A stretch of 64,000 nucleotides of DNA from Schmidtea polychroa (lineage: Eukaryota). Under the pieces are notes generated by a model. That model did not search any database. It was not told where the DNA came from and saw only the letters and a list, made by a program, of their open reading frames with translations. The translations under genes and the position numbers were made by a program. Shown in pieces: positions 6,030 through 64,000 of this stretch; position 1 is the first letter of the stretch, and each line of letters begins with the position of its first letter. The DNA lies in contig CM097888.1 in assembly GCA_044892525.1 (NCBI GenBank), positions 69,812,001-69,876,000 on the forward strand. The letters are read 5' to 3'.

Positions 6030-8300
6030 TTGATTATGCAACACTCTAAATTTATCAAGATTATCCGTCATAACCATACCACCCCGTCTATTAAGTACCA
6101 TTTGCGTTTATCATTAGCATTAGTTAGAGCCCTCTTATTATTTTTAATGCTAAAAAGTTGGTGGTTCTTTCTTGTTATAATAAATTGGGGGCACCGTATA
6201 AATTTCATTATTATTATAACAATTCAGATAGGACTAATGGGTTATTCCAGAATCTTTCATTGTGACCCTCTTTTCTTTCATACACCGATTACAACCCTTC
6301 ATACTATAGTATTTGTTTCTTAAAAATATTCATTCGTCATATCCAATTCCCTTGTTCTCATCTTTAAATTTCTCTATAACAGAGTCAAGGGATCTTGAAT
6401 ATAATGACTGTGTTGTCACATAATTAGAGGTATCTAATAAATTATCTCTTGTCATTGCTGGTAAAAGCGAATTTAATTTGCAATTTTTAATTTCCAATAA
6501 AAATGATATTTATTTTGCAATTATATTCTACACAATATTTTGCTAACTCAAATTATTTTTCAATAATTGAAAATCATTTTTATCAAGAGTATTTGTTGAC
6601 ACTGCCATAAGTTGTGTATTTGTGTCAATATAACTCTTGAATATAGAAGACCCTTTAAATTGATTTGCGCGATAAATTATAGTTACTTTTACCCCAATAT
6701 TTAAATTAAGTTGGAGAAGTCTCCAATGAAGAACATAGTTATTCTTGGGATAATGCGTGAGCATCAACTTCTTTGCTTTGGCGTATGAATCTTTTTAGCT
6801 GCAACTATAAAATCATCCAACTTATCATGAATAGATGCAGGTATTTCTACTTTAACGGTATAACCAAATGTGAGTAGATCTAATTTAACATTCATACAAA
6901 TTACCATCAAGTAGTTTTTGGCTCTGTGCCCAACCATACACGTTGTTAATATCTAATATATAGAGCAACTCTGTATTTACATCAGATTTTACATAATGTT
7001 TATTTACGAAGGTAATTCTCCGCGTATCCCTCCCTCAAAGAAATTAAAATTTTCCATATGTCTGGAATGCCTAGAAGTTTAAGGGTTTCAATCTGTTATG
7101 AGCTATTGATTTTTTCCTAAACAGTTGGAAATAAGCCGCAAGTAAAAAGGTATCTAATTTTAGATAAATCATCATGTAATCAAAAATTTTATTACAGTTA
7201 GTTTACCGCATATACATTGAGCCAAAGAATATTTCAGTAACACCATCCCAAATTGGTAGTAATTGGAGAGTTTCCTGAAGCACTTCAAGACTAGTAGAAA
7301 AATTGTATGGGAATATTCCCTTACTATTAAACGTTATTCCATGAAATTATCCACTAGTCAATGGTAATGATGTTAAACTATCTACCGCATTTTAAGGGGT
7401 CATTAATAAACAAACAAAAATTGATAAGTTTTATAGTTAATACATCGATTCTTGCAAGTAAACTTAAAATGTGTTCGCTAGTTATAGGAATACAATTAAT
7501 ATTCCAAGAATTGAATTTACTTAACTCAAATTTGAGATTATAATGAAGATCATGAAAAATAGCTGGTAAGACAAATCGAATTTTTGTGAAAAATTACAAT
7601 TTAAACAAACTGCACTGAAAAATATTCCGGGAAAATGATCATGATCCCTTACTGAATCAACAAATATTTTTTTAGACAAATGGCAAATTGTAGAAGATGA
7701 AAATTTTATTTGATTATTTCTATTAAATATAATTTTCTTTTTTATAATTCTTGTCGAAAAATCGGATAACTATTTCTTTACTGTAGGATAATTGTAAATA
7801 ATACCTGTTTGAAATAATATTATTTGTATGTCTGAATATCAAAAGTGTAATATTGTATTATTGATGCATGTGTGTATCTTGTTCAAAATACTTACAATAT
7901 AATTACTTCCTCCGGAAGAATAATCAGTCTTTTGATATTAATAAATTATATAACTCCAAAGTCTTCTAATATTTACCAATCAATTTATGTTCATGAAGAA
8001 ACTGATCGACACAATCTAATCATACAAAACTTTTATAAAATTTATCTACTGTTAAGTTATTTATGAAAATAAAACCACCTAAGATTGGTAAATGTTTTTG
8101 ATAATATTTTATATTTTTAGCCAAAATTACCTCAAAGTCAGCATAAATATCAAAAGGATGATATACAGTTTGTAAAACTAAGATATTTATCTTCAAGTAA
8201 TCCGAAGAGAGTGATTCCTAATTGATTATTGTAACAATATAACCATGACCAGTTAATCTGGTTATTTGCGAATAAATTGTTATTACAAAACACATGTATT
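6030..8300 (-). mobile_element. Degenerate Polinton/Maverick protein-primed DNA polymerase B
   Basis: Collinear minus-strand motifs with stops and frameshifts: PFDIYADFE (~8130), RDHDHFPGIFFSAVCLNCN (~7620), KGIFPY (~7315), FFEGGIRG (~7035), LDINNVYGWAQSQKL (~6940), KLMLTHYPKNNYVLHW...FKSYIDTNT...LLKNN (6543-6770), IEKFKDE...LRNKYYSMK (~6320-6380), KRALTNANDKR (~6120). Confidence 0.8.
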
Positions 8301-46362: not shown

Positions 46363-47130
46363 AAGTCGCGTAAAACGAGGCATTAAAAAATACATGAAGA
46401 AAACAAAATGCATAGTAAATTAATTGAATAGTTTTCAAATGTACATACTTTTTAATATTTATTTAAATTATATTACACCTAATTCCGAAATTTAGTAACT
46501 TCTGTAATCTAAAAAAATCAATAAATTTATAGTATAGGAACACACAAACATACCTGTGTGTAGTGTTGCGGGTACACTACTCGGATGACCCTTTTCTAGT
46601 GCAGCTTTAGTCTAGAGGATGAATGCCCACCTTGATTTCGCCCATCATTTATTTGGTCATCGCCGAGCGGGACCCGTACATAACCTACACTCCAGCATAG
46701 CACCCGTGAATTGCTTCACGTTGGAACTGTGCTATGCCGGCGAGACGCCAGTAAGCAGGTGAGCCAGCTCCTTCGGACTACTCCTTACTGAGGCCTCGAC
46801 TTCCCAACCCTGACTGCCGATAGAAGGACTTACGTCTACTCATTCCGTCGCCCCTCGCAATAATTCTAGCTGAGTTTACCAACTGACTAATGCTCCTCAT
46901 AATTTTATGACTCTCAATGCCATTTACCAATTTCAACTCAACTGTCTTAAGGTGAGCACAAAGAAAAAACGTATGCAGACAAAAATGGTTTATTATTAAG
47001 GTTATCACACAAATATATCTAACACCTATACAATAAAATTCCCGACAACAGGAAAAGAGACAAAGGTAAAAATGTTATCAGACAATGTTCGGGCCATTTC
47101 AGAGAACGAAGACTTTTTACGGAGAAATTC

Positions 47131-47880
47131 TCATTTCTCCCACTCCGAGTCTGCCAATAGATCTTCCAAATCGAAAAACTCAGAGGCATTTTCCTCCCAG
47201 GTAACACCAGCGGCGGAGATGATTCGCCCTGAGATCACTGATGCTAAATCGATTGCTGCAGGAGGGTTGATGACTTTGATTGGATGATCCGACGATCGCG
47301 GGTTCTGTTTGGCGGTTACGCGTTCCCGCTGTTTCTTTTTGCGTTCGGCTCTCGATAATTGCCGACGCTTTGGTTTCGATGCCGTTGGATTGGTCGGGGG
47401 TGCTGCGGAGGTGGATGCTATCGCAGGTAGCACGTTACTGGTTCCGGTAAAGATGATTTCTGGTTCTTTAGGTGAGAGCTCGGTCTCTACGCACCCATGG
47501 CAAGGCTTTCCGACTGGAGAAGAAGACCCGCCCGAGATATCATGATGCGCTGGGAAGAGATTACCGGCTTCATTACTTGGGATCTTCGCGATCTTCCTTG
47601 TAATTGCTGCCTGGACGTATAATTTGTGCAGCGCCTCCGACTGCTCTTTTATCAGGCTCCTCTGCGCCCGACTCTCGGAAATCAACGCGTCTCTACAGTG
47701 CTCGCTTCGGTGCAGCTTCTTCTGAGCCTCCTTCATCTGGGTGGGACTGAACCATGTCCCCTCTAACTCATCTATCTTTCTTTTGTGCTTTCCGATCTGG
47801 GCCTGGAGCTCCTTGATAATTGAATTCTTGTCGGAGCAAGAAAAACAAGGTCGAAGAACGGTCTTGGAATTTGGCAACAT
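47131..47880 (-). CDS. 249-aa accessory protein: CxxC, coiled coil, CxxC, basic NLS-like patch, acidic-aromatic tail
   Basis: Intact ORF preceded by a strong acceptor TTATTCTCATTTTCCATTTTTTCCACAG, 8 nt before ATG. No family recognised. Confidence 0.6.
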   Translation of the reverse strand: MLPNSKTVLRPCFSCSDKNSIIKELQAQIGKHKRKIDELEGTWFSPTQMKEAQKKLHRSEHCRDALISESRAQRSLIKEQSEALHKLYVQAAITRKIAKIPSNEAGNLFPAHHDISGGSSSPVGKPCHGCVETELSPKEPEIIFTGTSNVLPAIASTSAAPPTNPTASKPKRRQLSRAERKKKQRERVTAKQNPRSSDHPIKVINPPAAIDLASVISGRIISAAGVTWEENASEFFDLEDLLADSEWEK

Positions 47881-50800
47881 TTGAGTGACTGTGGAAAAAA
47901 TGGAAAATGAGAATAATTAAATCGACGTGAGTGTCACCATCTAACCACATTCCGACTTTACTGATCATAGACAAAGATATGGGTTTACTAGTCAAGACAA
48001 GTTCTACTGTACGATGGATCCTCATACCTTTTGGATCTTTAATTGTAAGAGGATAAATCGATCAAACCAAATTTCGTACAAGGAAAGGAAGGTATTACCA
48101 TTTGTGAGAGAAATTCTAGGTCGATGAAAATGATTATTTAGTTAATCCGCTTGCAATCATTATCTCACGTTTACTGAGAGTCGAATTAAATTGTTGACTT
48201 TTCCCCCCGAACGAGTGATTTTGATGAGTGCATCATATACTGGGGTCGAGTGACTATCTATGGAAAAAGGGGTCCATAATGTCCGTTGATCAGTTCCTAC
48301 CGGATAAACGGAAAGTTATTTAATTTTTTAATTATTTATTCATTCTCTCTAATTACTCACATATGTGTTTTACCTGGTTTAAATAATATTCGATATTAAT
48401 ACTAATGATAATTATGTCAAAAATTGAAATAATTTCTGTGCCATTCATGCTAAGATAATAAAGAGAGAATAATCATAATTATGATCGGGTTTGGCATTAA
48501 AAATTATTGTCTTTATGATAACCGAGCACGGTATCAATGTGAGCTAGAAGCCGACCATTCCTGCTAGGTAGATAAGGAAATGTCAGCCCGGTGGTTGACT
48601 ATTAATCCGGAGCGGTGAAATCCGATACCTGTCGGTAGTTTAATTAGTTAATAGAAATTCCATCTGGTATGTTCAGTCTGATTTTACATGAGTAGGGACG
48701 GGTGTGACTTTACCCACTGCGCTTGGCTACTGTGTATGTCTGCAACTGGTGACGCATGCAAGGTGCGCTTTCACACACTTAATTATGCTACAAATGTATG
48801 TGTTCAATGTTTGCATGATGGCATTTCTCAGAATTTTATCTACCGCGAAATCGCTCACAGTTCTACTGCATATGATGATGATTTACTAATTCTCACCGGA
48901 TTATTGGAAAAATTATAATTATCTGTATTGCAAATGTTGGATATAGCTTGCTCCAAGGGTGGATTTTTCGTCTTTAATTCCTCAAGCCTAGTTTATCAAT
49001 CTACTCTCTAAGTGCTGGAGGATTTTTTCTATCTCTGCTGGATTGCCAACCTCATGTAATACTGGAATTTTGTATTTAACAAGATTATCGGCTAACTTGA
49101 AGAAATATATTTTCTTGGTTCGAATTGGTTGCATTTTTCATTGTTAAATTAGTTGATGCCAATAGTTTATGTAATTAGGATAATTAATTGTATGTAAATT
49201 CTTTTATATATAATTCTAAAAATTTATGATAGAGAATCATTTTATGTAATTTAAACGTTCATTTGGAACAAACTCGTTTTATGCAATTCTGAATCACTTT
49301 TTGGATTAAATCATTTTACATGGTTCTACCATTTATTCACAAGCAGTCATTTCGAGTAATCCTAATACTTATCTGAAGCCATCTACTTTGAACTCCCTTG
49401 CAACTATGTCTTTAAGAGAACTTTTAGATGAACGGAATAACAGTTCAGAAGGTCATAGGCTAAAAATTAGTCGGAACAGATTCTGAGTGAAAAATATGAA
49501 CCTCGAAGATATGTCACAGATAGCCTCACTAAGGTTTGAACAATTCTTGACGCACAACTTACATTGATGATGGAGAAAATTTTCTTAGCAAAAACGACAT
49601 TCAAAAACGATAGTGTGACACCCTCAATCACTGCGCGAATACATCAAAATTCTCCGATTCCCTTATTACATATCTTTGTTTTCAATCACTACATGACTAT
49701 CAATTTTCTGCCACCATTTACCTATAGATTTTAGTCGCACCTTCAGCAATTGGACCCGTGAAGAAGCCTTCACATTTCGGCCCAATCTAGCTGCGTGATT
49801 GAAATACCCTATGTCCACCGGTGGAGCTCCCGAAGGCACCTCACACCATGACATAGAGTATCTCAACGCCACGTTTCTCGCAAAATTGAATAGTCTCCAA
49901 TAATAATTCATAAAAATTGATTCGTAAAAGATCAATAATTCTTAACGAGCAAATCATTTATTATTAAGCAAATTATTAATTTAAATAAAGCATTCTAAAA
50001 TCAAACGAAAAGAAAAACCATTTTTCAAATTAAAAATATAATTAAACTATACGCATTACTTAAAAATTCAAAATAAGCAATCAAAAATCCTTATCGAATG
50101 ATTGATACTAGTATGGGCTGAGTCGAAAAGGGTACTATGTCAAATCAGTTAATGCTTGAATATCGTCTAGTTCTGTAAAAATCTCTTGAATCTTGGAATT
50201 GTCCTCGTGAGTTATCGTGCGTTAGTTGCTGGAGTTCTGTTCTGTCGTAGAATAGATTTACCTATTGAGGTGGTTTGATTAACAGTAGTTGTTATGTTTT
50301 TAATGCCTGCTTATATATTAATTTTTTGTTTGCGCGGACCAATTAGAATTGAGTACCGCTTAATTTTATTAATTTAATTTATTTTCCTTGTTTTTGAGTT
50401 ATTTCTTCTTATTTTCTTTATTAAAATTATGTTTTTATTTATTTTCCTTAATTTTCTTATTATTTACTATATTTTACGTTGTTTTCCGCCATTCTATTGT
50501 CCTATTTTAATTTTTTCTCATCTTTATATTTTTTGTTTTAATTCCTATTTTCTAATTATTGTTTTTCTTATGTTTTATTCTATTTTATTTGTCAATTTAT
50601 TTGTTTTTATTTTTTATTTTATTTTAGTTAAGTTTGCCCTAATTTCCCAACTACCCTTCGACTCAGCCCAACAAATCACTCGGGGACCCATCAAAATTGC
50701 GTCCCGCAATTGCATAGTTATCTTACTTCATGCATTCATAAAAAGGATATATCGAAACAATTATACTACAATAACAAAAACAATTTTATTCTAAGATATA

Positions 50801-50906
50801 GGTCAAAACAAGACCAAGCAAGTATCACTTAAGGTGATAGTTTGTATATACAATAAAAGTTTCTACATATGATAACACCAATGTTTGAGTTAGAGTCTAT
50901 GAACTG

Positions 50907-51566
50907 CTAACCATTTGATGCTTCTGCTGACGGTTGTTGGTTGGTTTGGGTATTGGTGTTGAGATAGGTCTGATTGTTAGAATTCGGCTGGATTGGTTGG
51001 TTACTCGGGATTCGAGGTCGGAATGGGGTTGGGTTAAGATTTGTCAGTGGCACTTCTTGAGGATTTCTGTTCGAGATTACTCTTATTGATGTCGAGATTC
51101 TGCATCTATTTCTAACTTCGTAGATCTTCATGAGTATTGGTAGACATAGGAGGAGGGTTTCTGCGATCACCACATATATGAGATAATGGGTGTCATTGAT
51201 TTCGGGAGGTGTTTTTGGTTTTTCTACAAGATTTTCAAAATTCTCTTGTTGCATTTGTTGTTCCAACTGGTCGAATTGTTGAATTTGTTCGAGGATTTGT
51301 TTGTTTATCATTTTACAAATGGGATTCTTTTTACACATTGTTTGGATGTTGTTGATGTGTGATCGGGTTGATTGAATGGTTTGGATGATATGGATTTTTA
51401 CTGTCATAGGGTATGTGCATTGGCCGGATTCTTGTTTAGGTTCTTGATTTTGATTTCGGTAATCTCGTACGATTTTCGGTTGGGCGTTTACTTGTTTGTT
51501 CTCCATCAGAATCATCAATACCGTTATTGTTATCATCATCTCGCCTCGCATGATACTATTATACAT
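50907..51566 (-). CDS. Predicted type I membrane protein (signal peptide, small ectodomain with Cys, one TM, Pro/Gln/Asn-rich tail)
   Basis: Hydrophobic MMITITVLMILM...VNA/QP, MCKKNPIC, TM YLIYVVIAETLLLCLPILM. Start could be 51551 or 51539. Confidence 0.7.
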   Translation of the reverse strand: MYNSIMRGEMMITITVLMILMENKQVNAQPKIVRDYRNQNQEPKQESGQCTYPMTVKIHIIQTIQSTRSHINNIQTMCKKNPICKMINKQILEQIQQFDQLEQQMQQENFENLVEKPKTPPEINDTHYLIYVVIAETLLLCLPILMKIYEVRNRCRISTSIRVISNRNPQEVPLTNLNPTPFRPRIPSNQPIQPNSNNQTYLNTNTQTNQQPSAEASNG

Positions 51567-51607
51567 TCATTATGGTTTATTTACAATTGGTTTTAGTGAC
51601 CCCTAAT

Positions 51608-52372
51608 TTAATGATTCTGGTTTGGGTTATTTTCGGCGATTCTCATCAGGGTGGATTCCGCTTTAATAACTCTGTGTCTTAACTCGGGCAGCATTTCCAA
51701 CTGTCTGTTCTTTTCACGGGCCTCCCTTTTCATGTGCCTTATCTCCTTTTTCAGCCTTCTAATTTCTTCCCGTTTTTTGTCGAGGTTCCTTTTTAGTTCG
51801 ATTTGTAGGAAATCTTGTTCGTTTTCCTGCGAAAGGTTTCGTTGTTGTTGTTGTTGTTGTTGTTTTCTCTCGATCTCTTGGTATTTGCGAATCCATTTCT
51901 TCATTTCCTCACTTTCTCGTTGTTTTTCCTCCAATTGTCGATTTAATTTATTTATAGTTATTTGGTGTTCTTTCGCCTTGGTTTTCCAATAATCCTGGAT
52001 TACTTCTTCTGCCTTGAAGCTTGCCCTCTCTTGCCATAGTTCCTCTGCAATCTTTTCCCAGTTTCTTCCTCGTGTTCGTTGTTCTTGCAACCATTCATTC
52101 TTCTCTTCCGCTTCCCTCTTTATTTCTCCTAACACTTCGCACTCCTTCTTTAGTATTTTAATCATTTTTCGGTCTTCTATATATTTGTTTATTAGTCGCT
52201 CGTTTTCGTCCTTCTCTTCCCGTAACTTGGCCTTTAACGTTTGTGTTTCTGTTGTTTCTGCCTCAATCTCTCCCTCTTCTACGTCGCTCGTAATTTCTAT
52301 TATTTCCTCGATTTTCATATCTGTAATATGTACAGTTAATGGTGCGCTATAGTGCGACTTATACATATACAT
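51608..52372 (-). CDS. Coiled-coil accessory protein (E/K/R/Q-rich)
   Basis: Intact 254-codon ORF with heptad-like charged composition. Likely start 52318 (MKIEE). Confidence 0.7.
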   Translation of the reverse strand: MYMYKSHYSAPLTVHITDMKIEEIIEITSDVEEGEIEAETTETQTLKAKLREEKDENERLINKYIEDRKMIKILKKECEVLGEIKREAEEKNEWLQEQRTRGRNWEKIAEELWQERASFKAEEVIQDYWKTKAKEHQITINKLNRQLEEKQRESEEMKKWIRKYQEIERKQQQQQQQRNLSQENEQDFLQIELKRNLDKKREEIRRLKKEIRHMKREAREKNRQLEMLPELRHRVIKAESTLMRIAENNPNQNH

Positions 52373-52503
52373 TTATATAAAATTTTAATAGTTCGGGTTA
52401 CAGTCCCTTGAATACTTTTACAATACTTTAATTTTTTTTTTTTTTTTTTTTTTTTTGTTTGGGATATACGTCCCGATTTTTGTCTTTATCTTTTTATTCA
52501 CCC

Positions 52504-53559
52504 TTATACGAAGGTTTCCTCCTGTCCCACATAACCTTCGTCACTATCGACCGCTGGATGCAACTGTATCGCAATAGGGTCATAGGGTAGGTAATATTGG
52601 GGGATTTGAGCTCTCAATTCATTAACTTCATCTCTTAGAGCTCGAGTGATATTCAGCTCTTCGTCGAGCAGATAAGTGAGATACCTTGTCTCTTCGTCTT
52701 TCGCCTCTACTTGTCTATCTAAGGCCTTGATTTTCTCGTCGCCCTTCCATTTTTCAATTTCTATTTCCAAGTTTTTGATATTTTCGGTATACATTTTCCT
52801 CTCGTTTTCTAATTTTCTGTTTTTTCCCGCTAGGACCATGTTTCTTTGTTCTAACGATCCTTGTAGTCCATTAAGGTCTCTTTTCATCTCTTCGACCTGA
52901 TTTACTAATTCCACAACCCGTCCTGCTTGCTGGGTTATCATCTCTTCCATTGCAGCATTCTCGTGCTCTCTTATGTCGCATTTTATTGCCAAATGTCGTT
53001 CAAACTCCATAGCCTTCATCTGCCATGTTTGGCTTCGGGCGGCGACCTTTTTCAACCGTTTCAGTTCTTCCTTTATTATTAAATTTTCCTCCCATTTACC
53101 CTGTTCGCTCTCATATCCGAGTCTCATGGGCAATTCTTTCATCTCTTTTTTCATTTCATTGCTTTGTCTTTTCCATTTTCTCGCTTCTGCCACTAAGTGC
53201 ATCATTTTCCTTCCTTCTATTTGCTTTTCCGCTTCGCGCTTGGTGTTCTCATCGGTAAGTCTCTTTCTCGCTTCCTGCACTAGCTGCTTTAAGTAGTGGC
53301 TGTGCGCTTCTTGGCGGGTATTTTCTAGTGACGCCCATTTTGATGCTCTTTTGCATGCTTCTGCTTCCGCTCTTAAGTTGTGTATTAACCATTGGTATTG
53401 ACTATTCTCATCCTCTCTAGCTTCTTCGATGTGATTTCGGGTGAGATTAGTTAGTTGGAACATTACTTTGTTCCATTTTTTGTTATGTTCTCGGGGAATT
53501 TGTGTCTTGTTGACATTGGTTGGGACTATCGCAGTTTCGGTTAGTTTCTCTTGTGTCAT
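52504..53559 (-). CDS. Coiled-coil accessory protein, 351 aa
   Basis: Intact ORF, long charged helical segments, acidic C-terminus (DSDEGY). Confidence 0.75.
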   Translation of the reverse strand: MTQEKLTETAIVPTNVNKTQIPREHNKKWNKVMFQLTNLTRNHIEEAREDENSQYQWLIHNLRAEAEACKRASKWASLENTRQEAHSHYLKQLVQEARKRLTDENTKREAEKQIEGRKMMHLVAEARKWKRQSNEMKKEMKELPMRLGYESEQGKWEENLIIKEELKRLKKVAARSQTWQMKAMEFERHLAIKCDIREHENAAMEEMITQQAGRVVELVNQVEEMKRDLNGLQGSLEQRNMVLAGKNRKLENERKMYTENIKNLEIEIEKWKGDEKIKALDRQVEAKDEETRYLTYLLDEELNITRALRDEVNELRAQIPQYYLPYDPIAIQLHPAVDSDEGYVGQEETFV

Positions 53560-53753
53560 CTCTAAATCATAGACATCGATTAAGCTTTTTATTATGAAAA
53601 AGGAATTTATTCATTATTTGCTGTTTCTTTGGAAATTTTCGCATCATTTTTGGGTTTACGTATTTAGGGTTTTTCATACTATTATTATATAATATTTTAT
53701 TGGTTATATACACCGATATATACAGATTATTATATACAACATTATTCGATCGT

Positions 53754-55142
53754 TTACTCCGTTCTGCCCTTCTCCTCTTTCCTTACGGTCATCTTGATAT
53801 ACACCGTGCCATTTCTTGCCATATCTTCTACTTTTTGTTGTAGGATGAACGTAGGTGCTCCTGTTGCTGATCCTTCTTCTTCCGTAGGTCTCTGGTAACA
53901 CATTTGGTTTCCAGTTGTCTTGAAGCTTTGTTCGTGGATGTTTCGGTCATTCATTAGTGCAATATCGATTTTCGCCTGGAACGGCCACTCTATTATTTCG
54001 TCGTATTCTCCTTTACATAACAGAAAGAAAATCGAAAAGTGTGTGTCTAATCCGGTTCCGTCCCCGTTGGGATATATCTTCATTTTCATTTTGTACCCAT
54101 TTTTCCAAGAATGGAATGCAGGACTTGTTATTCTTGTCTCTTCTCCGGTTTTTGCTTTTCGTATTCTTTCCTTTACTCCCGTAATCTTCCATATGTAGGG
54201 TGCTGTTGGGGTTATCTCATTTAGATTTATTTCCCGTATTTTCTGATGTAGCTCCTTGGCCTGATTATTACTGATTTCTATTCGGTTTATTTGCATCTTT
54301 ATGTTTGCTCGGGCTTCTTCGAACGCTTCCCTTTCTTCTAGTAGTTCTTTGACTAACACTTTCAACGATGCTATCTCTATCTCCATTTGTTTTACTTTCT
54401 CCTCGCTTTCTTGTAACGCAGTCGACCACATTTCTGCGTGGGTTGAAGCATTTTCTACTAAATGATGTGGTAACTCCCCTCGGTGTAGTAGTTTCTGACA
54501 ACCCCATTTGCCTAGTACGCATGTCATTCTTTTCTTTTCACATTCCCTTAGATGCTGTGCCACCTTCATTATTTCCCCTTGGTTACATCCGTTTGGGCAT
54601 TCCCCACTGAACTCTGCACATACTCTCTCCTCTTGGACATTGTGATGTTTGAGGGTGAGATTTTTCCACGTATCTATTTCTCCACAGTGTTCACATCTTT
54701 CTAATCTCTCCTCACACTGCCTTTGATGCTCTTTTTCTTCGCTTGCTCGAATGGTTTTATGGCACCTTTCACACTGGCCAATTCTGTACATACATTCTCC
54801 CATATGTTGTACTACCTTCCATATTACTCCTTTCCATTCGCATGGGGCATTTTTGCATCCCAGGTTGGTGTTTAACATGTCTTTCACTGCGGCTTTATCC
54901 TCGTTAGTGTCTTCTAAACTCGATATTAGTGTCTCTTTACACACCGGGCACCTCTGTGGTCTATTCTTTATTGCTTCACTGATACATTCTTTACATACTC
55001 TGCATCCACATTGGGTTTGGTGGGGTTCTTTTAGTAACTTTTCACAGATTCCGCACATAACATGTTTGTGTATTCTGATCGTTGTAGATTTTCGGACTTG
55101 CTCGACAATCTCTCTGAACTCTTCTCTTTGTCGTTTATCCAT
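53754..55142 (-). CDS. TRAF-family protein (RING, TRAF Zn fingers, coiled coil, MATH/TRAF-C), intronless, 462 aa
   Basis: RING CGICEKLLKEPHQTQCGCRVCKEC...CPVC; Zn fingers CKNAPCEWKG..H...C and CEHC...H; MATH PYIWKITG...SPAFHSWKNGYKMKMKIYPNGDGTGLDTHFSIFFLLCKGEYDEIIEWPF. Confidence 0.95.
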   Translation of the reverse strand: MDKRQREEFREIVEQVRKSTTIRIHKHVMCGICEKLLKEPHQTQCGCRVCKECISEAIKNRPQRCPVCKETLISSLEDTNEDKAAVKDMLNTNLGCKNAPCEWKGVIWKVVQHMGECMYRIGQCERCHKTIRASEEKEHQRQCEERLERCEHCGEIDTWKNLTLKHHNVQEERVCAEFSGECPNGCNQGEIMKVAQHLRECEKKRMTCVLGKWGCQKLLHRGELPHHLVENASTHAEMWSTALQESEEKVKQMEIEIASLKVLVKELLEEREAFEEARANIKMQINRIEISNNQAKELHQKIREINLNEITPTAPYIWKITGVKERIRKAKTGEETRITSPAFHSWKNGYKMKMKIYPNGDGTGLDTHFSIFFLLCKGEYDEIIEWPFQAKIDIALMNDRNIHEQSFKTTGNQMCYQRPTEEEGSATGAPTFILQQKVEDMARNGTVYIKMTVRKEEKGRTE

Positions 55143-55227
55143 TCTATAATTATATGTACATATAGTTCTTATCGATACAGGTTCGATATTTTATTTACAG
55201 TTATTTACATTTTAAGCTAGGTTTGGT

Positions 55228-55587
55228 TTAGGGTTCGGAAGAGTCGGCTTCGTGTCCGCTCTCCTCTCTATTCATTAACCATTCCGACCAGTCTTCTATT
55301 TCTGTCTGTTCTGCTTCCTCCATCATTCTGTTTAGTTCAATTTCCTGTCTACGGCTATATTGGGTTATCCTCTCTATCTCTCTTTGCATTTGTTCGATTT
55401 TCAACCTCTGGTCTTCAATTATCTTCAAATAACTAAATCCTCTATTCATACTCTCGATTAGGTTTCTGTGCATCGTCAATCCTTGTTCTTGCAAATTGGA
55501 CACTAATTGTGCTAATACGGCACATTGTTGCTTCCATAATTCTTCAGTTACTGTATTGTGGTTCATTTCGTTATTTCCTTGATCCAT
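55228..55587 (-). CDS. Small coiled-coil accessory protein (~119 aa)
   Basis: The track ORF starts at TTG 55611; first ATG is 55587 (MDQGNN). Acidic tail resembles that of the 351-aa ORF (EADSSEP vs DSDEG). Confidence 0.6.
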   Translation of the reverse strand: MDQGNNEMNHNTVTEELWKQQCAVLAQLVSNLQEQGLTMHRNLIESMNRGFSYLKIIEDQRLKIEQMQREIERITQYSRRQEIELNRMMEEAEQTEIEDWSEWLMNREESGHEADSSEP

Positions 55588-55880
55588 TCTTAATTTATAT
55601 ACACTTTTCAACTCTTATTTAAAGTTAATTTTATTTTATGGTTCCCGTTATTGTATAATATTAATACCGCGCTTATATAAAGATATAGTACTGTTATATA
55701 CATAAGATATACTTACTTTTTACAATTATATACAGTCATATTCCTTTCTATATACGTGAGTTTGGAGGGCGCTGAGCGTTCCAGGCCTCCACCCACTGTT
55801 CCTGTTTGATAACACTTGGTCGTTTCACTCGATGTTGGAAATTTCTGATTCGGGTCATCTCTAATTCTCCGCGATGTCGT

Positions 55881-58800
55881 TTATCTTTGATTATTTTTAT
55901 TGTCGCCCCCCGTTATGATTAGGAAGGCCCCTGTTATTATTATCCCACTGATCCACATCATCTGCTTCACGCTTATATTCTCTGGTTTCTCCTTGTTCGT
56001 TAATGTTGATATCGCTTCTATACCTTTCTCGTTTCCTCTTTTGCCATTTCCTTTCATCATTTCCCGTATTCTTGCTATTTCCTCGTTCATACCCTCCTTT
56101 GCCATCTTTTGTATTTTTTCCATCTCTTCCTCCGAAACATAGTTGTCCTGAGCTTCCTCGCCGGTTTTCTTGTGCTTTCCTCCTTCGTTCTTTTCGTCGT
56201 GGTTTTTTCTTTTCTTTCCTCTTTTCCCTGGGTATCGTCGGCATTCTCTTTTTGATTCATTCCTCCAGATACAAACCGTGTATTCTTTCGGCGGCTGCTG
56301 CTGCGTCACATATTGATGGCATCTCTCACCTGGTCCTAATCTTGAAATACAGACTTTGTGCTCTCTTCTAGGTTGGAGCTGCGTTATTACTATTTCACCA
56401 CCTTTTCCTAGGTGTACCTCTTTTCCTTTAACGTTCGTTATTCTCTTCCCGTCTCGATTTCGGTATGCTTCTTGTATTCTTACTTCTGTTATTGGTTCTG
56501 TGTCCTCATTTATCAGTACTAGTTTCTGATACGCTCTAGACATGCATCTTCCTAGTATGCACCTTTCCTTTAAGTCCCATTCTTCCTTTAAATCCCACTG
56601 CTGCTCTTGTGCTTGCTTTTTCTTTTCTTGTTTTAGTTCATCCTCTTTGCTATCTTGATTCTCCGCTTCTTTGGTTTCTTTTATCGTTCTCGTCCCTCCA
56701 TGAGCTGTTACTAACTCTATCATGGTAAGCATAATTATCATTAATATCATATTTGTCTCTATTTCTTTGTTAGTGAAAGGTAGGCATACCCTCTGTTTTC
56801 CATTATTCGGTTTTTCCTCCTCTTTGGTCTTGGTTCCCGGGCTGTTTCCCTCTCTTTTCGTATCCAAATCCTTGTTTTCCGGTTTATCCTCTTCCGGTTC
56901 TCTTTTCCCTTTATCCTCTTTTCGGCCTTTTCCGTCATTGTCATCGTGTTTATCTCCCCCGCTGTCGTTTAAAATGTCGTCCTCGACATTTATATCGTTC
57001 AATAATCTGCGATATGCTGTTAGCACTCTGTTTCTTGCTAATTTTGCTTCGAATTCAAACTCTTTTCTACCCGTTGCAGCATGTCTCTTTCTATTCCATT
57101 CTTTAACTAACTCTCTCAATTGCATACGACGATGTTTCCCAATTCGTTGTTGCTCGTTCTGATTTTGCGTGAATTTTAGGTCTTCTCTATTTAATACTAT
57201 TAAAATAATTTTAGGCGTCCCCCCTTTAGTTAGGGTATTCTTTACCATCGCATTTTCTCCGTTTTCGTAGAATTCGTTTACATTTATCGCATATTTATTA
57301 TTTTGTGGTACCTTCCATGTTAATAATAATTTCATTGCTTCTAGATTTTTCCGTACCGTATTCCATTGAAATTGAGATGTGTTTTTGCACATATTCTCAA
57401 CTTCTTCTTTTGTCGCATTTTTGCAAATAAATCTGATCATTTCTAAGTTTGGCTGTATGGTTGCCCAGTCCAATGTGGAGTTCCCTTCGTTTGATTTTTC
57501 GTCTAGTCTCGATCCTGATTGATGTAAGATGTGGAGTGTTTTTGGGTGTATTTTCGTTATAGCTGCATACATCATGGCGGTTTCACCTTGTTCATTTTTC
57601 GTGTTGGTTTCCTCACCCATCTCCCCAAGGATTCTCATGATCGTTATTGCTCTATTCTCTTTTGCAGCTAGTATTGCTTGTTGTAGAGGTGTTCTGGAAT
57701 CCTTTGTTACCATCGTAAATGCTCGAGGCAAGAAGGTTTTGATTTTCCCGATATCTAAACCCGTGGTTTGATCTCTTGCGTATGTGTGTACGGCTTTTAT
57801 TATTTTGGACAATATTATTTCGTCTGGCAGCTCTAGCATTTCCTCAAAGAACACTTCTTTTGCTTTGCGTATTATTGCCTCTTGATCTATACTCATTGAT
57901 TTGGTTTCGATGACGTTGTTTGTGACCGTTTGGTTCGTTGTTGACTTTGATTCCCTTGATTTCTCATACCTTATTTTCGTTTTCTTTCCGTTTGGATTAT
58001 TGATTCGTTCCTCTGCTGTAAGTATTTGGATAATATCCAGGTAATTCTCGCGGATGTTATTCATTGTGTCCATCATATATAACACACTTACCGTTTCCCA
58101 ATATTTATTTCGTACTTGGTTAGTAAATTGGAATATTGATTTTTCGAATGTGTCGATTCGCTTTTTTGCTAACTGTTCATCTTTATGATTTGTGAATTTT
58201 ATCCCTCGTTCTAGTAATTGATTCGGAATTTCGAATAAATGATGTCCTTTCATAGCTTCTCTCATCAGCGTGTTCTCTCCTCTCGTGAACGCTTCGTTTA
58301 CGTTGATCATATAATCGTTTTGAATTGGATTTCTCCATGTAATTAATATTCCGGTAATTGTTGTCAGTTTCTCTTTGATCGCTGTTAATAATCCATCATA
58401 CATGTTTCCGACTTCTCGATTGTCCTCATATGATAGTAGTTCCATCAACGACGTGAACGCCTCGGTACTTTTCCCTTCGATAGCATGATGTAGAGCGTTT
58501 TTCCGCTCGTGGTCTTGTGTAGTTATTTTCGATCCAGTATCGAGTAATGCGGTTATAATGTCTTTTGTTTTGCCTCTGTTTGCGGCTATCATTAATGGTG
58601 TGTAACCTTGGTTGTTTGTTTGTTCTGTTGATCGCTTGCAGTCGTGAAATGCTTCTATTGTTTCTAGTATTTGCTCGTTGTTACCTACTTTCATGAGTTT
58701 GTGTAATGGTGTGTCTCCGTAATGATCTGTTATTGTAAATAATATTGGCCATTGGCTTTTGACTACTCGCAATAATGGGTGTGTCCTTTCTCTATTTGCA

Positions 58801-61800
58801 TAGTTCTCGATCATCGTCAATAATCCTCCTAATATTTCGAAATCTAATCGATCTTTTGCCCATCCAGGTATTTTAATTTTTACCTCTTTTACAATCTTTT
58901 CCGCTTCTGATGGTTGGATACCCAATCGTCCGGTGATCGGTTCTGCGAGTTGTTGCATCATGTTCATTCTGTAGGTTTGCGAACGTGTGGTTAATGTACG
59001 GCCCTCTGGTTGACTAGTGGCTGTTTTTGGAATTGATTTGCATCGTGCTACGTTTACGTATATTGGCCTGGTAAATGGGTTATTTACCAATTTCACTCTT
59101 ACATTGGTTTCGCCTACGAATAAGATCTCATATGGTCCTTTTCCGTTGCGTTGTAACTTTTTTGTGGTTCCTGGAATTAATTCCGGGGTTTCTATCATTA
59201 CCCAATCACCTGTTTGAAACGTATGTTGCTTCACGTTTTTCTTTCGATCGTGTAAATCTTTATAACTTTCCTGGTAGAACTTGATATTTAATCCCGCAGT
59301 TTCCCAAATCTCCTGCATTCTTTCCTTGAATTTCGTAACATAATCGTCGATCTCCATATACTGCGATATCGGTGGTTGGTATTCCAGGTCCATTGGCATA
59401 TTACATTCTCTTCCGTACATTAATTTGAATGGGCTCATTTTCGTTGATGCGTGAATCGACATTCTGTACGCCATAAGACATAGGTTTATATATTCGTCCC
59501 AATCTCGTTGGTGACGGTCAACGTAGTTTGATAACATTTGTATAAGTGTTCCATTAAATCTTTCCGTCATCCCATTGGTTTGGGGGTGGTATGGAGATGT
59601 TCTTAGTTTTGCTATTTTGAAGTAATTTGTTACTTCGCTCATTATCTCACTCATAAAATTAGTTCCCTGATCGGTTAATATCTGTTTTGGTGTTCCATAT
59701 CGGCAACATATCTCTTCTACCAGAATTTTTGCGATTGTTTTAGCTTTTTGGTCTGGCATCGCGAATGCTTCTGGAAATTTCGTAAGAAAGTCGGTAATCA
59801 CTAAAATATAAACGTTTCCTCTATCCGATTCCGGTAATGGACCAACTACGTCCATTGATATCATCGTCATCGGCTCTATTGGTACGGGCATTGGCGTTAA
59901 AGGCGCTTTCCATTTTGATCCAGTATTTTTCCTGGTCGCACAAGTTAGGCAATTTTTTACCCATTCGGTTACATCTTCAGTTAACGTAGGCCAAAAATAT
60001 TTCTGTTTCATTCTTGCTAACGTCTTTTTCGATGACATATGTCCTCCCAATCTCCCATCGTGATATTGCGTTAGTAACTCTTTTCGTCGGTTTTCCGGTA
60101 TACACATTAATCGTTTTTCCCCATCCATTATCAGCAACCAATCTTTCTCTATAATATATCGGTGTCGGTGTTTATCCATATGTTCTTTTAATTTTTGGTC
60201 TTTCGCATATACATCTGTCTTTCCGGTTTTTACATAATCGATAATTTGTTTTAATTCCGCGTCCTCTTGTTGGTTCTTTCGCAATTGACAGAAATCTAGG
60301 TCTTCTGCTACCATTAGGCATATGCGTTGCATTTCTGAATCCACCAAATCTGGAAAAATAAATCTTGACATACAATCGGCGTTGGCATTTGCTCTTCCCG
60401 CTTTGAATTTTATAAATGGGGAGTATTCTTGCAATTGCATGGCCCATCTCATCAGTCTACTGGACGCTTCTTTATGTTGCCCTAACCACACTAATGGTTG
60501 ATGATCTGTGGTTATACATATCTCATGTCCCCATAGTAAATATCGGAAGTGTTTGATAGCTTGTATTATAGCCAATGCTTCTCGTTCTGTTACCGAATAG
60601 TTCTTTTCGTGCTTTTTGAATGTTCGACTGTAATACCCGATTACTCTCTCTTTTCCTTCATCGTCTAATTGTCCCAGAATCGCGCCTGCCGCGTACCCGC
60701 TTGCATCCGTTGCCAATAGAAATGGCTTCTTAAAATCTGGGTGTACTAGGATAGGTGCTTCGATTAGTTTATCTCTCAGCGTTTCAAACGCCTCTTGTTG
60801 TTCCTTCCCCCAAATGAACGAAATGTCCTTCTTTACTAATTCCTGGATTGGTTTTGCAATTTCTGCATAATTTTTTATAAATTTGCGATAGTATCCGCAT
60901 AATCCTAGAAATTCCTGAACTTGGGTGACAGTTTTCGGTGCTGGACATGTTTTTATTTTCTCAATGTTTCTTGGATCTGGCTCCTTTCCTTTAGCTGACA
61001 CTATGTGTCCTAAAAACGTGACTTTTTCCTTTGCCCAATCGCATTTTGATGGTTTGAGTTTGAGTTTCCACTGTCTTAATCTAATAAATACGTTTCGGAT
61101 ATCTTCCAGATGTTGTTCAAATGTCGCTGAATAGATTAGTAAATCATCAATATATACCATACATTGTTTGATTCCATGAGTGACAAAGTTCATACACCGT
61201 TGAAATGATGCTGGTGCGTTGGTCAGTCCGAATAGCATTTTCCTGAATTGATATAGATCTCGTCCCAACGTGAAAGCTGTTTTCTCTTTGTCCTCATCTT
61301 TGACTTTAATCTGCCAGTATCCACTTTTTAGATCTAAAGAAGTAAAATATGCTGCCCCTTGCAACATCAATAACATCTCATTGATGTCCGGCAATGGATA
61401 GGTATCTCTCTTGGTTACTGCGTTTAACTTCCGATAATCGATACAGAATCGTTGGGTGCCATCTTTCTTTTTTACCATGACCACTGGGAATTGCCAGGGT
61501 GAGCAACTTGGTTCGATTACTTTTGCGTCTAGCATCTTTTGTACTTCTGCTTCGGCTATTTCTTTTTGCATTTCTGCTAGCTTGTATGGTCTTAATGCAA
61601 TTGGAGTTTCATCTATGAGGGGTATTGCATGTAGGGTAACATCGCATGTACCCAAATCTAAATCTGAGATGGCGAATATATCTTTATATTCTACCAACAA
61701 TCGGTGCAATTTTTTCTTTTCATCATTCGTCAACAACATACTATCTATTGTCCATAATTCATCATCTTTGATCATCTCGTTGGTCACTTTCGGTAATTCT

Positions 61801-64000
61801 ATGTCCATCATTGGGGTCAATCTTCCCAATTTTTCGTTCTCATAAATGATTTTGTCTTCCTCTTCGAAATTCGTGATGTTGAGCGGTATCACTCCTTCTT
61901 GGTTTATTGTGATTATTTCCCTTGCGAGTGGTAACTCTCGTCGCTTTTCAAATGACTTGCTTGGTTCAAAGATAACTTCTCCTTCCATACCCGTATCCAC
62001 TTTTATCTGACAAATCATCTGCGATTTTGCTGGTACTATTATTTTTTCTGGACATCTGATTACTGCATTCATTTTGCATATTCTACCGGTTTTGTCTTTT
62101 AAACACATGGTGGTTAAGTCAATTACGACTTCTTTTAACAATTCTGGCATCAAATCCGTTCCGATTATGCATGGTACGCTAAGTTTTGGTATTACTGCCA
62201 AATACGTTTCAATTTCGTTGTCCTGGTATCTCAAAGTAGTCCACCATCTTCCGACCACGTCCACTGTTTCTTTACTACATGCTATGATGTGAATTGTTGT
62301 TGATTCGATATCTTTCCAGTGTTTACTGGGGATTTGATTAATCGCTATCGCTGATACATTAGCTCCGGTGTCTATCATAGCATTGGTTTCTTTACCATTG
62401 ATTTGAATCATAACTGTTACTGCTGGACCTCCAGGTAGACTCATTGCTGCTATTGTTCTTACGTCATCTGCTTGATCTACACTTTTGGTACGTCGTGTTG
62501 GCATATAATGCATACCGGGTTGACTCGGTAATTGCGGATACATATTTTGTGTCATGGTCAAAGCTGCTTGTGGTCCCACGATATCCGGTGGTATGTAGCT
62601 TCCATTGGCGATCCAGGTATTTGTCTTTTCCTTTTCCCAATATGGTGCCGTTTCCATTGGTTTTTCGTTTGGGTTTCTGTTTGGATATAGACATTTATCG
62701 TTCCCGTTATCGTCGTCGTCACTATCGCTGTTAGATGATTGGCTTCTAAATCGGTTCAAGAATTTTGGCTTATTCTTTTTCAATTGTCGTCTTGTTGCTT
62801 CATCGTACATTACTTTCCGGAATCGTCTGCCTACTTCTTCGTCGGTTCCTTTAATCTTTGTTAATATTTTAATCAATTGCTTTATCCGATGAATGTCTTT
62901 TGAGTGACCATGTAATACCATGGTTTTAGCTAAAAATGGTAGAAAGCCTACTATCATTTTCCAATTTACTTTCTTTTCTCGCTTGTATATATCAAAACAC
63001 GCTAACATTTGTGTTAGTTTTACTCTGACTATCTGAATTATGAGTATGATCCCTAATATCCCGGCCATCATTTGTCCAAAAACTAAGAATCTTCCCCACA
63101 TTGCTTTCATCATGTTCGATGTGGCTTGTTGAAAATGGTCTGGTGATAGTAGCAGCTCGTAATTCGGGCCTGATTGATAATTTGTTCCCCCCGTTATTGT
63201 AACCATATTTGACAAAATGGATTCTCGTCTGGCTGGGAAGAGTACGTTAAGTCGTGCTGTTTCTAGATCTTCTGGGGAATACATACCACCGTTTGACACG
63301 TCTATAGGTTTGAAATCCAGCTCTGTGGCGAGTTCTATTAATCCAAATTTCTTGGGCTCCTCGGATATGGTTTTTCCCGGTAACATCATCCATTTCCCAT
63401 CGGGTCTTTCATACAAAGGTCCGTATGCATTAGAACAGTTAAAGAGATTTGGGTAGAAACCCACTGGATTCATAATTCTAGTGACTGGTTGGACGAATCG
63501 ATTTTGTCCTTTATAACGGATTTCTAATTCATTTGCACATCTCTTTTCGGGTAGTATGGATTTTTCTGGCATTCGTGCATACGTCTTGGTACACTGGTAT
63601 GTGTACATCACTTCTCCTACCATTCTACCAAAATGTCCATCTGGTAATGGGAGTGATGGCATTGTGTTATCTGGGTGTGTTATCGCAATAGCTAACTTGG
63701 TTTTCAGTATTTCTTTATTCAATGAACAATCGTTTTGTATCAGATCGTAATATACTTTTTGCAAGGTCGTTTGTCCACGGTGAAATAGAAAATCCATTTT
63801 ATTATTTGCATATAAGTATAGTTTTACGTCCTCCGTTGCTATCTTTCCCACTGCTCTATCGATTATTTGTCTCGACATATAGATACCAGCGTAATTGGTT
63901 TTATATACTATACTGTCACATTTGGTGGTTTCTTTCTCTTTGATAAATCTCATACCTAGATCTGGATCGTCTGTGATTAATGCTGTTGGTGTCTTCTGCG
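55881..64000 (-). CDS. Polyprotein >2700 aa: chuvirus-like glycoprotein-TM-protease-RT-RNase H-integrase-2x ankyrin module-membrane tail; 5' end outside window
   Basis: The frame stays open upstream of ATG 63953 (QKTPTALITDDPDLG). G-like GEVMYTYQC..CANEL..FVQPVTRI..C..GKW; TM 63027-63089; DTG 62364-62372; YIDD 61143-61154; ATDASG ~60700; HHCC ~59937-60070; DVVGP, TDQG, ERFN integrase core; GPY ~59135; ankyrins DTPLH, GYTPLMIAA, KNALHHA. Confidence 0.95.
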   Translation of the reverse strand, partial: QKTPTALITDDPDLGMRFIKEKETTKCDSIVYKTNYAGIYMSRQIIDRAVGKIATEDVKLYLYANNKMDFLFHRGQTTLQKVYYDLIQNDCSLNKEILKTKLAIAITHPDNTMPSLPLPDGHFGRMVGEVMYTYQCTKTYARMPEKSILPEKRCANELEIRYKGQNRFVQPVTRIMNPVGFYPNLFNCSNAYGPLYERPDGKWMMLPGKTISEEPKKFGLIELATELDFKPIDVSNGGMYSPEDLETARLNVLFPARRESILSNMVTITGGTNYQSGPNYELLLSPDHFQQATSNMMKAMWGRFLVFGQMMAGILGIILIIQIVRVKLTQMLACFDIYKREKKVNWKMIVGFLPFLAKTMVLHGHSKDIHRIKQLIKILTKIKGTDEEVGRRFRKVMYDEATRRQLKKNKPKFLNRFRSQSSNSDSDDDDNGNDKCLYPNRNPNEKPMETAPYWEKEKTNTWIANGSYIPPDIVGPQAALTMTQNMYPQLPSQPGMHYMPTRRTKSVDQADDVRTIAAMSLPGGPAVTVMIQINGKETNAMIDTGANVSAIAINQIPSKHWKDIESTTIHIIACSKETVDVVGRWWTTLRYQDNEIETYLAVIPKLSVPCIIGTDLMPELLKEVVIDLTTMCLKDKTGRICKMNAVIRCPEKIIVPAKSQMICQIKVDTGMEGEVIFEPSKSFEKRRELPLAREIITINQEGVIPLNITNFEEEDKIIYENEKLGRLTPMMDIELPKVTNEMIKDDELWTIDSMLLTNDEKKKLHRLLVEYKDIFAISDLDLGTCDVTLHAIPLIDETPIALRPYKLAEMQKEIAEAEVQKMLDAKVIEPSCSPWQFPVVMVKKKDGTQRFCIDYRKLNAVTKRDTYPLPDINEMLLMLQGAAYFTSLDLKSGYWQIKVKDEDKEKTAFTLGRDLYQFRKMLFGLTNAPASFQRCMNFVTHGIKQCMVYIDDLLIYSATFEQHLEDIRNVFIRLRQWKLKLKPSKCDWAKEKVTFLGHIVSAKGKEPDPRNIEKIKTCPAPKTVTQVQEFLGLCGYYRKFIKNYAEIAKPIQELVKKDISFIWGKEQQEAFETLRDKLIEAPILVHPDFKKPFLLATDASGYAAGAILGQLDDEGKERVIGYYSRTFKKHEKNYSVTEREALAIIQAIKHFRYLLWGHEICITTDHQPLVWLGQHKEASSRLMRWAMQLQEYSPFIKFKAGRANANADCMSRFIFPDLVDSEMQRICLMVAEDLDFCQLRKNQQEDAELKQIIDYVKTGKTDVYAKDQKLKEHMDKHRHRYIIEKDWLLIMDGEKRLMCIPENRRKELLTQYHDGRLGGHMSSKKTLARMKQKYFWPTLTEDVTEWVKNCLTCATRKNTGSKWKAPLTPMPVPIEPMTMISMDVVGPLPESDRGNVYILVITDFLTKFPEAFAMPDQKAKTIAKILVEEICCRYGTPKQILTDQGTNFMSEIMSEVTNYFKIAKLRTSPYHPQTNGMTERFNGTLIQMLSNYVDRHQRDWDEYINLCLMAYRMSIHASTKMSPFKLMYGRECNMPMDLEYQPPISQYMEIDDYVTKFKERMQEIWETAGLNIKFYQESYKDLHDRKKNVKQHTFQTGDWVMIETPELIPGTTKKLQRNGKGPYEILFVGETNVRVKLVNNPFTRPIYVNVARCKSIPKTATSQPEGRTLTTRSQTYRMNMMQQLAEPITGRLGIQPSEAEKIVKEVKIKIPGWAKDRLDFEILGGLLTMIENYANRERTHPLLRVVKSQWPILFTITDHYGDTPLHKLMKVGNNEQILETIEAFHDCKRSTEQTNNQGYTPLMIAANRGKTKDIITALLDTGSKITTQDHERKNALHHAIEGKSTEAFTSLMELLSYEDNREVGNMYDGLLTAIKEKLTTITGILITWRNPIQNDYMINVNEAFTRGENTLMREAMKGHHLFEIPNQLLERGIKFTNHKDEQLAKKRIDTFEKSIFQFTNQVRNKYWETVSVLYMMDTMNNIRENYLDIIQILTAEERINNPNGKKTKIRYEKSRESKSTTNQTVTNNVIETKSMSIDQEAIIRKAKEVFFEEMLELPDEIILSKIIKAVHTYARDQTTGLDIGKIKTFLPRAFTMVTKDSRTPLQQAILAAKENRAITIMRILGEMGEETNTKNEQGETAMMYAAITKIHPKTLHILHQSGSRLDEKSNEGNSTLDWATIQPNLEMIRFICKNATKEEVENMCKNTSQFQWNTVRKNLEAMKLLLTWKVPQNNKYAINVNEFYENGENAMVKNTLTKGGTPKIILIVLNREDLKFTQNQNEQQRIGKHRRMQLRELVKEWNRKRHAATGRKEFEFEAKLARNRVLTAYRRLLNDINVEDDILNDSGGDKHDDNDGKGRKEDKGKREPEEDKPENKDLDTKREGNSPGTKTKEEEKPNNGKQRVCLPFTNKEIETNMILMIIMLTMIELVTAHGGTRTIKETKEAENQDSKEDELKQEKKKQAQEQQWDLKEEWDLKERCILGRCMSRAYQKLVLINEDTEPITEVRIQEAYRNRDGKRITNVKGKEVHLGKGGEIVITQLQPRREHKVCISRLGPGERCHQYVTQQQPPKEYTVCIWRNESKRECRRYPGKRGKKRKNHDEKNEGGKHKKTGEEAQDNYVSEEEMEKIQKMAKEGMNEEIARIREMMKGNGKRGNEKGIEAISTLTNKEKPENISVKQMMWISGIIITGAFLIITGGDNKNNQR

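Follow-up and report, generated by a model that had tools for sequence, protein, structure and literature searches.

The stretch analysed here, 64,000 nucleotides of Schmidtea polychroa contig CM097888.1 (assembly GCA_044892525.1, forward-strand positions 69,812,001 to 69,876,000; hereafter the window), carries on its minus strand the 3' portion of a Ty3/Gypsy element 30.4 kb long, whose long terminal repeats (LTRs) measure 4.1 kb. With a probability of about 0.7, we consider it a broken copy of a Burro-type element that was recently mobile, with an envelope as part of its polyprotein and a cassette of accessory genes that is fixed and likely expressed by means of a spliced LTR leader. The element belongs to a tandem pair, its polyprotein frame is broken, and its accessory genes are linked to pol and kept by purifying selection. 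Families of this type are already known; the details of the RNA signals and a satellite family, both supported by the sequence, were not found in the literature examined, and it is in them that the interest lies.

Structure of the locus and conservation of the cassette

In the window and 50 kb of adjoining DNA the order is LTR-interior-LTR-interior-LTR, with a repeat unit of 30,396 bp, an interior of 22.2 kb and three 4110-bp LTRs showing 0 differences among them. The two interiors are 8 substitutions and one gap apart (99.955% likeness between the units), and a single 4-bp target-site duplication (TSD) bounds the outer ends of the three-LTR tandem. TG...CA LTR ends, the TSD, a tRNA primer site and the order protease, reverse transcriptase (RT), RNase H, integrase are all those of Ty3/Gypsy. 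Both units carry the same frameshifts, which fits duplication after insertion, and unequal recombination between LTRs would be its likely source. Among 150 scored RT matches, four pairs lie 26.2-26.4 kb apart, with open-frame lengths equal within each pair.

The original prediction, made from the letters of the window, had placed a giant, young, retrovirus-like retroelement at 46559..64000. The element is real, giant and retrovirus-like, as had been said; its end lies at 46564. Of the at least 17.4 kb then counted as coding DNA, 4.1 kb is LTR, and the seven minus-strand open reading frames (ORFs; 47131-63998), namely a 5'-open frame of 2705 aa and frames of 119, 462, 351, 254, 219 and 249 aa, sum to ~13.1 kb. 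Spacers of 41-293 nt separate the cassette genes. Elsewhere in the window, frames reach 402 aa at most.

All seven predicted ORFs are present, but the supposition that they were intact and free of premature stops failed for the polyprotein: compared with an unbroken natural copy, it is frameshifted near 55,900, and it has two further frameshifts (within ~1 kb past the window end) and a stop codon (~3.2 kb past it, in unit 1). The open frame of this copy has 2932 aa, versus 4732 in many copies. At 16 amino acid positions the copy differs from each of the five unbroken ones with which it was compared; two of these positions lie at the frameshift, and one falls within a conserved RT motif. The window element is a broken copy of a young family, the youth being evident from the identical LTRs here and from LTR pairs 99.3-100% alike within other copies.

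Linkage of the cassette to pol, on which the original prediction depended, was examined in every sixth of the 150 best RT matches (n=25) and in two copies chosen for a long frame, a sample biased to RT-similar copies. The six 3' ORFs stand in conserved order in 27/27 of these copies; the 5' RING gene is absent in three, the integrase-ankyrin part in one, and the 219-aa gene aligned over just 27-44% of its length in three. Where both ends were resolved, a 4-bp TSD was found in 16/16 copies and an element length of 29.7-30.8 kb in 15/16. Among the 25 sampled copies the polyprotein is full-length in 9, each accessory ORF in 20-24, and all eight frames in 6. The ratio of non-synonymous to synonymous divergence (dN/dS; one copy versus four) is 0.06-0.49 for accessory ORFs where dS was measurable and 0.02-0.03 for env, indicating strong purifying selection on the latter; between subfamilies the frames remain open though synonymous sites are near saturation. 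Positive selection behind the fast divergence of accessory genes was considered and is not supported, since dS climbs with dN; mosaic exchange fits better. Copies 97-98% alike in pol often have LTRs alignable only partly, at 65-78%, which points to exchange of LTR types between lineages.

Unbroken copies encode one polyprotein of 4617-4626 aa from the first Met, in the order Gag, CCHC knuckles, weak ubiquitin-like and BCL2-like stretches, G, Pol and ankyrin, with a 161-aa RING ORF upstream. Gag, expected beyond the window by the original prediction, was found there (PF03732, and PF00098 for the CCHC knuckles). PF24664 (env), RVP and RVT_1 lie in a single frame, so the mononegavirus-like envelope sits between gag and protease and is not part of the 3' cargo, as had been assumed. 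The ubiquitin match in Pfam (E 0.015-0.05) is below cut-off, and no Atlas or PDB match was found for the C-terminal domain. Such a polyprotein would be threaded through the membrane of the endoplasmic reticulum by way of hydrophobic segments within it and then be cleaved to give Gag, G and Pol, and the integrase would generate the 4-bp duplication. Among public metagenome proteins, nearly all unnamed, G lies in frame ahead of the protease in 9 of the 12 scanned best env matches; one unnamed polyprotein, P0152 (4844 aa), has G, six protease-like stretches, RT, integrase and ankyrin.

The 462-aa ORF has TRAF1-3 as its closest solved relatives; for the other five accessory ORFs of the window no Pfam match above cut-off was obtained, and neither a MATH domain inside the polyprotein nor a BIR gene, both traits of Burro1, was found in the scanned proteins of the family. 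The LTR-encoded 249-aa protein may, by its composition, be transactivator-like; it gave no database homolog, Atlas matches of at most 0.84 and a predicted model of helices only (pLDDT 61). The 219-aa ORF may start at a later Met, and its structure model (pLDDT 43) was unusable. More speculatively, the TRAF, RING, ankyrin and BCL2-like products would weaken the signalling of cell death and immunity in cells that express them.

Features of the element (coordinates of the window unless stated otherwise)
Feature	Position	Strand	Remarks
TSD, 4 bp	46560..46563	.	twin beside third LTR, ~39 kb past window end
3' LTR, 4110 bp	46564..50673	-	TG...CA ends; identical to two more LTRs past window
Two stem-loops near LTR 3' end	46693..46796	-	compensatory changes in window family, sister family and satellite
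Splice-donor-like GTAAG	46828..46833	-	in 28/28 family LTRs and 6/6 satellites
LTR-encoded ORF, 249 aa	47131..47880	-	CxxC, two long helices, basic stretch, acidic tail; acceptor-like site ahead
Pre-LTR element, 40 nt	50674..50713	-	at expected place of polypurine tract; hairpin, loop can pair downstream (pseudoknot-like)
Membrane protein, 219 aa	50907..51566	-	hydrophobic N-terminus, helical ectodomain, one transmembrane segment; fast-evolving
Coiled-coil-like ORF, 254 aa	51608..52372	-	no Pfam match above cut-off; Met19 probable start
Coiled-coil-like ORF, 351 aa	52504..53559	-	no Pfam match
Full-length TRAF, 462 aa	53754..55142	-	intronless; RING, zinc fingers, coiled coil, MATH
ORF, 119 aa	55228..55587	-	no Pfam match; sister-family homolog
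Twelve TGTA[ACT]ATA motifs	50852..55734	-	Pumilio-site-like; none elsewhere on strand in 46500-64000
Motif starts, first six	55734, 55702, 55603, 55209, 55199, 55160	-	
Motif starts, last six	53738, 53724, 53712, 52334, 51585, 50852	-	
Polyprotein, 3' part	55881..63998	-	frameshifted near its end; domain profile matches
Ankyrin	57429-58679	-	Pfam; followed by hydrophobic segment, domain without assignment, transmembrane segment
Integrase	59583-60101	-	Pfam
RNase H	60423-60812	-	Pfam
RT	60999-61475	-	Pfam
Protease	62139-62414	-	Pfam
G, C-terminal half	62982-63959	-	Pfam; Monjiviricetes (chuvirus-like) fusion protein
Six satellites fetched	C1 5.73, 5.99, 12.42, 28.01, 56.39, 77.26 Mb		none with pol

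Expression of the accessory genes

According to the model we favour, a short LTR leader would be spliced onto an acceptor ahead of each accessory gene, the GTAAG of the LTR being the putative donor. An acceptor-like YAG lies within 12 nt of the first Met, counted over distinct contexts, in 13/13 cases for RING, 10/11 for TRAF, 18/19 for the 351-aa gene and 21/23 for the LTR ORF, whereas it is found at that distance from 24-40% of non-coding ATGs. In the sister family described below, YAG lies within 4 nt of starts in 6/7 and 6/6 cases versus 7/114 in the background, a count that leaves out the LTR ORF and the second copy's broken membrane gene. Four contig sets (three guessed to be RNA, one other) showed splice-type ends at 0 of the 15 joints listed, out of 44, and are uninformative on splicing.

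The spacers are rich in a second signal. TGTA[ACT]ATA (UGUAHAUA in RNA) occurs in them 10, 7, 9 and 7 times versus 0.5-0.6 expected, counts reached in 0 of 500 dinucleotide shuffles each, and no enrichment of its opposite-strand version was found. It corresponds to UGUANAUA, the PUF consensus, and planarian stem cells need a Pumilio, according to passages of PMC5855632. It might be, though we suggest this with less assurance, that host Pumilio would bind the spacer motifs and tune accessory RNAs. A poly(A) signal after each gene was rejected, since AATAAA shows no enrichment in the spacers (7 versus 5.5 expected; reached by 170/500 shuffles). The spacer that separates the 351-aa gene from the 254-aa gene (region 52390-52420) holds a 25-nt poly(A) run, of a length varying among copies, and the sister family has a poly(A) run at the matching spacer too.

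That the accessory genes stand beside pol by chance, or are captured host genes decaying there, could be argued from the broken window copy and from the polyprotein broken in 16/25 sampled copies, but the idea is already refuted by the gene order kept in 27/27 copies, by purifying selection and by the homologous cassette (~24-37% identical) of the sister family. As for the way in which the cassette is read, a true operon, whose message would be cleaved and polyadenylated between genes and resolved by host spliced-leader trans-splicing, seems unlikely to us. TGTA doubles as a CFIm polyadenylation element, and the acceptors lie directly ahead of the ATG, both of which would suit it. The spacers are also shorter than the 300-nt threshold for flatworm operons, and trans-splicing is reported in planarians, according to passages of PMC12582326; however, spacer AATAAA is not enriched, the enrichment concerns the full 8-mer, and the LTR holds a candidate cis donor. 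As to the operon proposed by the original prediction, leader splicing appears more likely, on the sequence, than one polycistronic message.

Even less probable are internal AT-rich promoters of the genes' own, with the motifs serving as TATA-like or forkhead-like DNA sites and AG as start context. TGTATATA and TGTAAATA resemble TATA and forkhead sites, and some motifs lie 10-20 nt ahead of an ATG. Many others, however, directly follow stop codons, the LTR and leader contain none (two copies counted), and all three H variants are present, as in the PUF consensus UGUANAUA given in passages of PMC5855632.

Several points weigh against a Burro-type element expressed through a spliced LTR leader. 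Judged at the first Met, three genes do not pass the acceptor test, those of 119 aa (3/14, mostly AAG), 254 aa (3/13) and 219 aa (3/14), the latter two passing only under a lenient rule that allows a later Met. The sister family has no GTAAG at the corresponding position, and the motif may therefore be kept for RNA structure. The splicing model is drawn from sequence, and the anti-death role, which we propose more weakly, from domain names. The tandem might conceivably be an assembly duplication, and the copies are related, hence the counts are not independent. The Bcl-2 match in Pfam, at the expected place in 2/3 sequences, is below cut-off (E 0.044-0.057), and the 130-aa stretch between protease and RT gave no Pfam match to dUTPase, for which the published call used HHpred.

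Terminal RNA signals, satellite and sister family

The primer site begins 7 nt from the LTR and matches over 18 nt the 3' end of a host tRNA-Pro with its CCA; the tRNA-Pro genes were found with a looser pattern, a stricter first one giving none. Host tRNA-Pro would prime the minus strand. The pattern has 1577 matches genome-wide, and the first 100 listed all lie in a tandem array with a 475-bp period on C1 from 130.90 Mb. Of the terminal features that the original prediction proposed to look for, LTR pairs, TSD and primer site were found, and a polypurine tract was absent in 22/22 copies with a resolved 3' LTR start: in all of them the last 20 nt ahead of the LTR hold 10-11 purines, and the longest purine run within 400 nt is 5-9. 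Nearly all LTR elements, to our knowledge, possess a purine tract.

In its place lies the 40-nt pre-LTR element, whose hairpin has a 6-7-bp stem and a 5-nt loop complementary to a downstream 5-mer. The fourth loop base covaries with its partner (A-U in the window family and satellite, G-C in a subfamily, U-G in the sister family), three variants that fall short of statistical proof; the pair is broken in 1/36 junctions, and likewise in one further copy that the junction pattern had not caught. Genome-wide, 1161 occurrences of the stem were counted. Somewhat speculatively, this structured element would replace the polypurine tract, and its presence in three families would, if confirmed, amount to a new mode of priming. 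The two stem-loops near the LTR 3' end are likely leader-RNA signals. The hairpin after GTAAG is paired in 97% of cells, with double changes at 10/18 pairs, in a structure derived from the same alignment, the rows of which are related. A search of Rfam with 46400-51000 returned one chance match.

A satellite of ~15.6 kb with 1.55-1.65-kb LTRs is abundant and has no pol. Four of the six satellites fetched have an unbroken Gag-only ORF of 760 aa, ~33-37% identical to the helper Gag, and the satellite-type LTR end is present in all 6/6 short elements; one tandem array has five or more units. Satellite and helper have in common the LTR ends, the primer site with its spacer, GTAAG, both hairpins and the 40-nt pre-LTR element. 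Genome-wide, the exact LTR-primer junction was counted 616 times and the 3' junction 769 times. Among the 100 listed primer junctions of C1, 81 fall inside the range that the list of 3' junctions covers; of these, 28 have interiors of 20-23.5 kb, 38 interiors of 10-14.5 kb, 4 other interiors and 11 none.

A weak match to the LTR ORF led to a sister family of 35 kb with 4.9-kb LTRs; of the five candidates fetched, four proved to be whole elements, and the remaining one (t3), which did not, was excluded from counts. MATH lies here inside a 4684-aa polyprotein, and the 3' cassette has homologs of the 119-aa, TRAF, 351-aa, 254-aa and LTR genes and a BIR-RING gene, with a 328-aa gene occupying the position of the 219-aa one. 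The LTR of this family has a second small ORF of ~122 aa.

Relation to Burro elements and complex retroviruses

Burro1/GYPSM1 and Burro2-4 are Schmidtea mediterranea elements whose env stands between gag and pol in the one reading frame and which have ankyrin, MATH_TRAF_C, BIR, BCL2-like and Smc-like motifs and accessory ORFs; they are proposed to meddle with host apoptosis and ubiquitin systems (PMC6431247). BURRO1 is de-repressed upon smedwi-2 knockdown, as stated in part of PMC8532177. The original guess that the window holds a Burro agrees with the layout described in PMC6431247: the element fits a size above 30 kb with LTRs and an interior of up to 25 kb, its polyprotein of 4617-4626 aa stands beside the ~4,900-5,100 aa given, with retrotrans_gag and CCHC first, and ankyrin and MATH_TRAF_C are present in ORF1 or an accessory ORF. 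Compared by description and not by sequence, Burro1-4 are alike in exceeding 30 kb with LTRs, in one ORF of 4,600-4,900 aa, in Gag with CCHC and, through matches that here stay below cut-off, ubiquitin-like and BCL2-like stretches, in env before protease, RT-RNase H-integrase and ankyrin, and in TRAF and RING cargo with accessory ORFs. With such cargo published, the architecture is largely annotated already, and the belief that the cargo was undescribed does not stand.

There are also differences. Burro1 has MATH in ORF1 and BIR, and the 35-kb sister family of the same genome fits its motif list better. A Burro-like element of Dugesia tigrina likewise has MATH_TRAF_C in an accessory ORF outside the polyprotein (PMC6431247), but upstream, whereas here TRAF lies 3' of pol and it is the 161-aa RING that forms the upstream ORF. 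Six GAG-ENV-POL errantiviruses of S. mediterranea, with an env of the herpes simplex virus/glycoprotein B (HSV/gB) type, are alike in gene order and fusion-protein class; the env of Smed_errantivirus_5 is closest by eye, roughly half identical, a value not computed (parts of PMC13524379). The passages and supplement rows of that paper give no LTR, primer-binding site or accessory genes for them, and its main text has neither 'Burro' nor 'ankyrin'.

Complex retroviruses (foamy viruses, lentiviruses, mouse mammary tumour virus) have accessory genes 3' of pol, one of them inside the LTR. The window family resembles them and the foamy-like fish endogenous retroviruses (PMC6431247) in both respects, splicing being the working model, and differs by its Ty3/Gypsy pol, chuvirus-like G in the polyprotein and absence of a polypurine tract. 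One could tentatively go further and see in Burro complex invertebrate retroviruses, with pseudoknot plus-strand priming, seven accessory genes spliced to the LTR leader under Pumilio, and an equally abundant Gag-only satellite parasite copying just these RNA signals; we regard this as possible but rather doubtful. Neither the cassette layout, spacer motifs, missing tract with the covarying structure in its stead and satellite nor the splice-acceptor-like sites ahead of most accessory starts were found in the literature examined, where no search joined Burro with these and Grohme 2018 and Repbase lay outside it.

The cassette content, its conservation and a concrete expression model are added here to the apoptosis and ubiquitin proposal of PMC6431247. 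Hundreds of intronless, element-borne TRAF genes may, we infer, inflate the planarian TRAF expansion reported in part of PMC6109357.

Some minor observations concern the locus itself. Ahead of the gag ATG (~5.6-5.9 kb past the window end, and in other copies) ~105 Met-less codons stay open; conservation begins at an invariant ATC-ACG-GAT in 6/6 copies, and 34/45 codons are identical, 3 synonymous and 8 non-synonymous, which may reflect an ACG start or an RNA element. A 74-bp tandem repeat lies between the RING gene and gag (6956-7476 of the neighbouring DNA) and also in two satellite copies. A piggyBac-like transposase fragment (PF13843) is located at 39330-40181. In one run guessed to be RNA, a sharp depth peak stands at the LTR start (50481-50744), with a loose A run on the plus strand at 50744, possibly from an antisense transcript or a copy variant.

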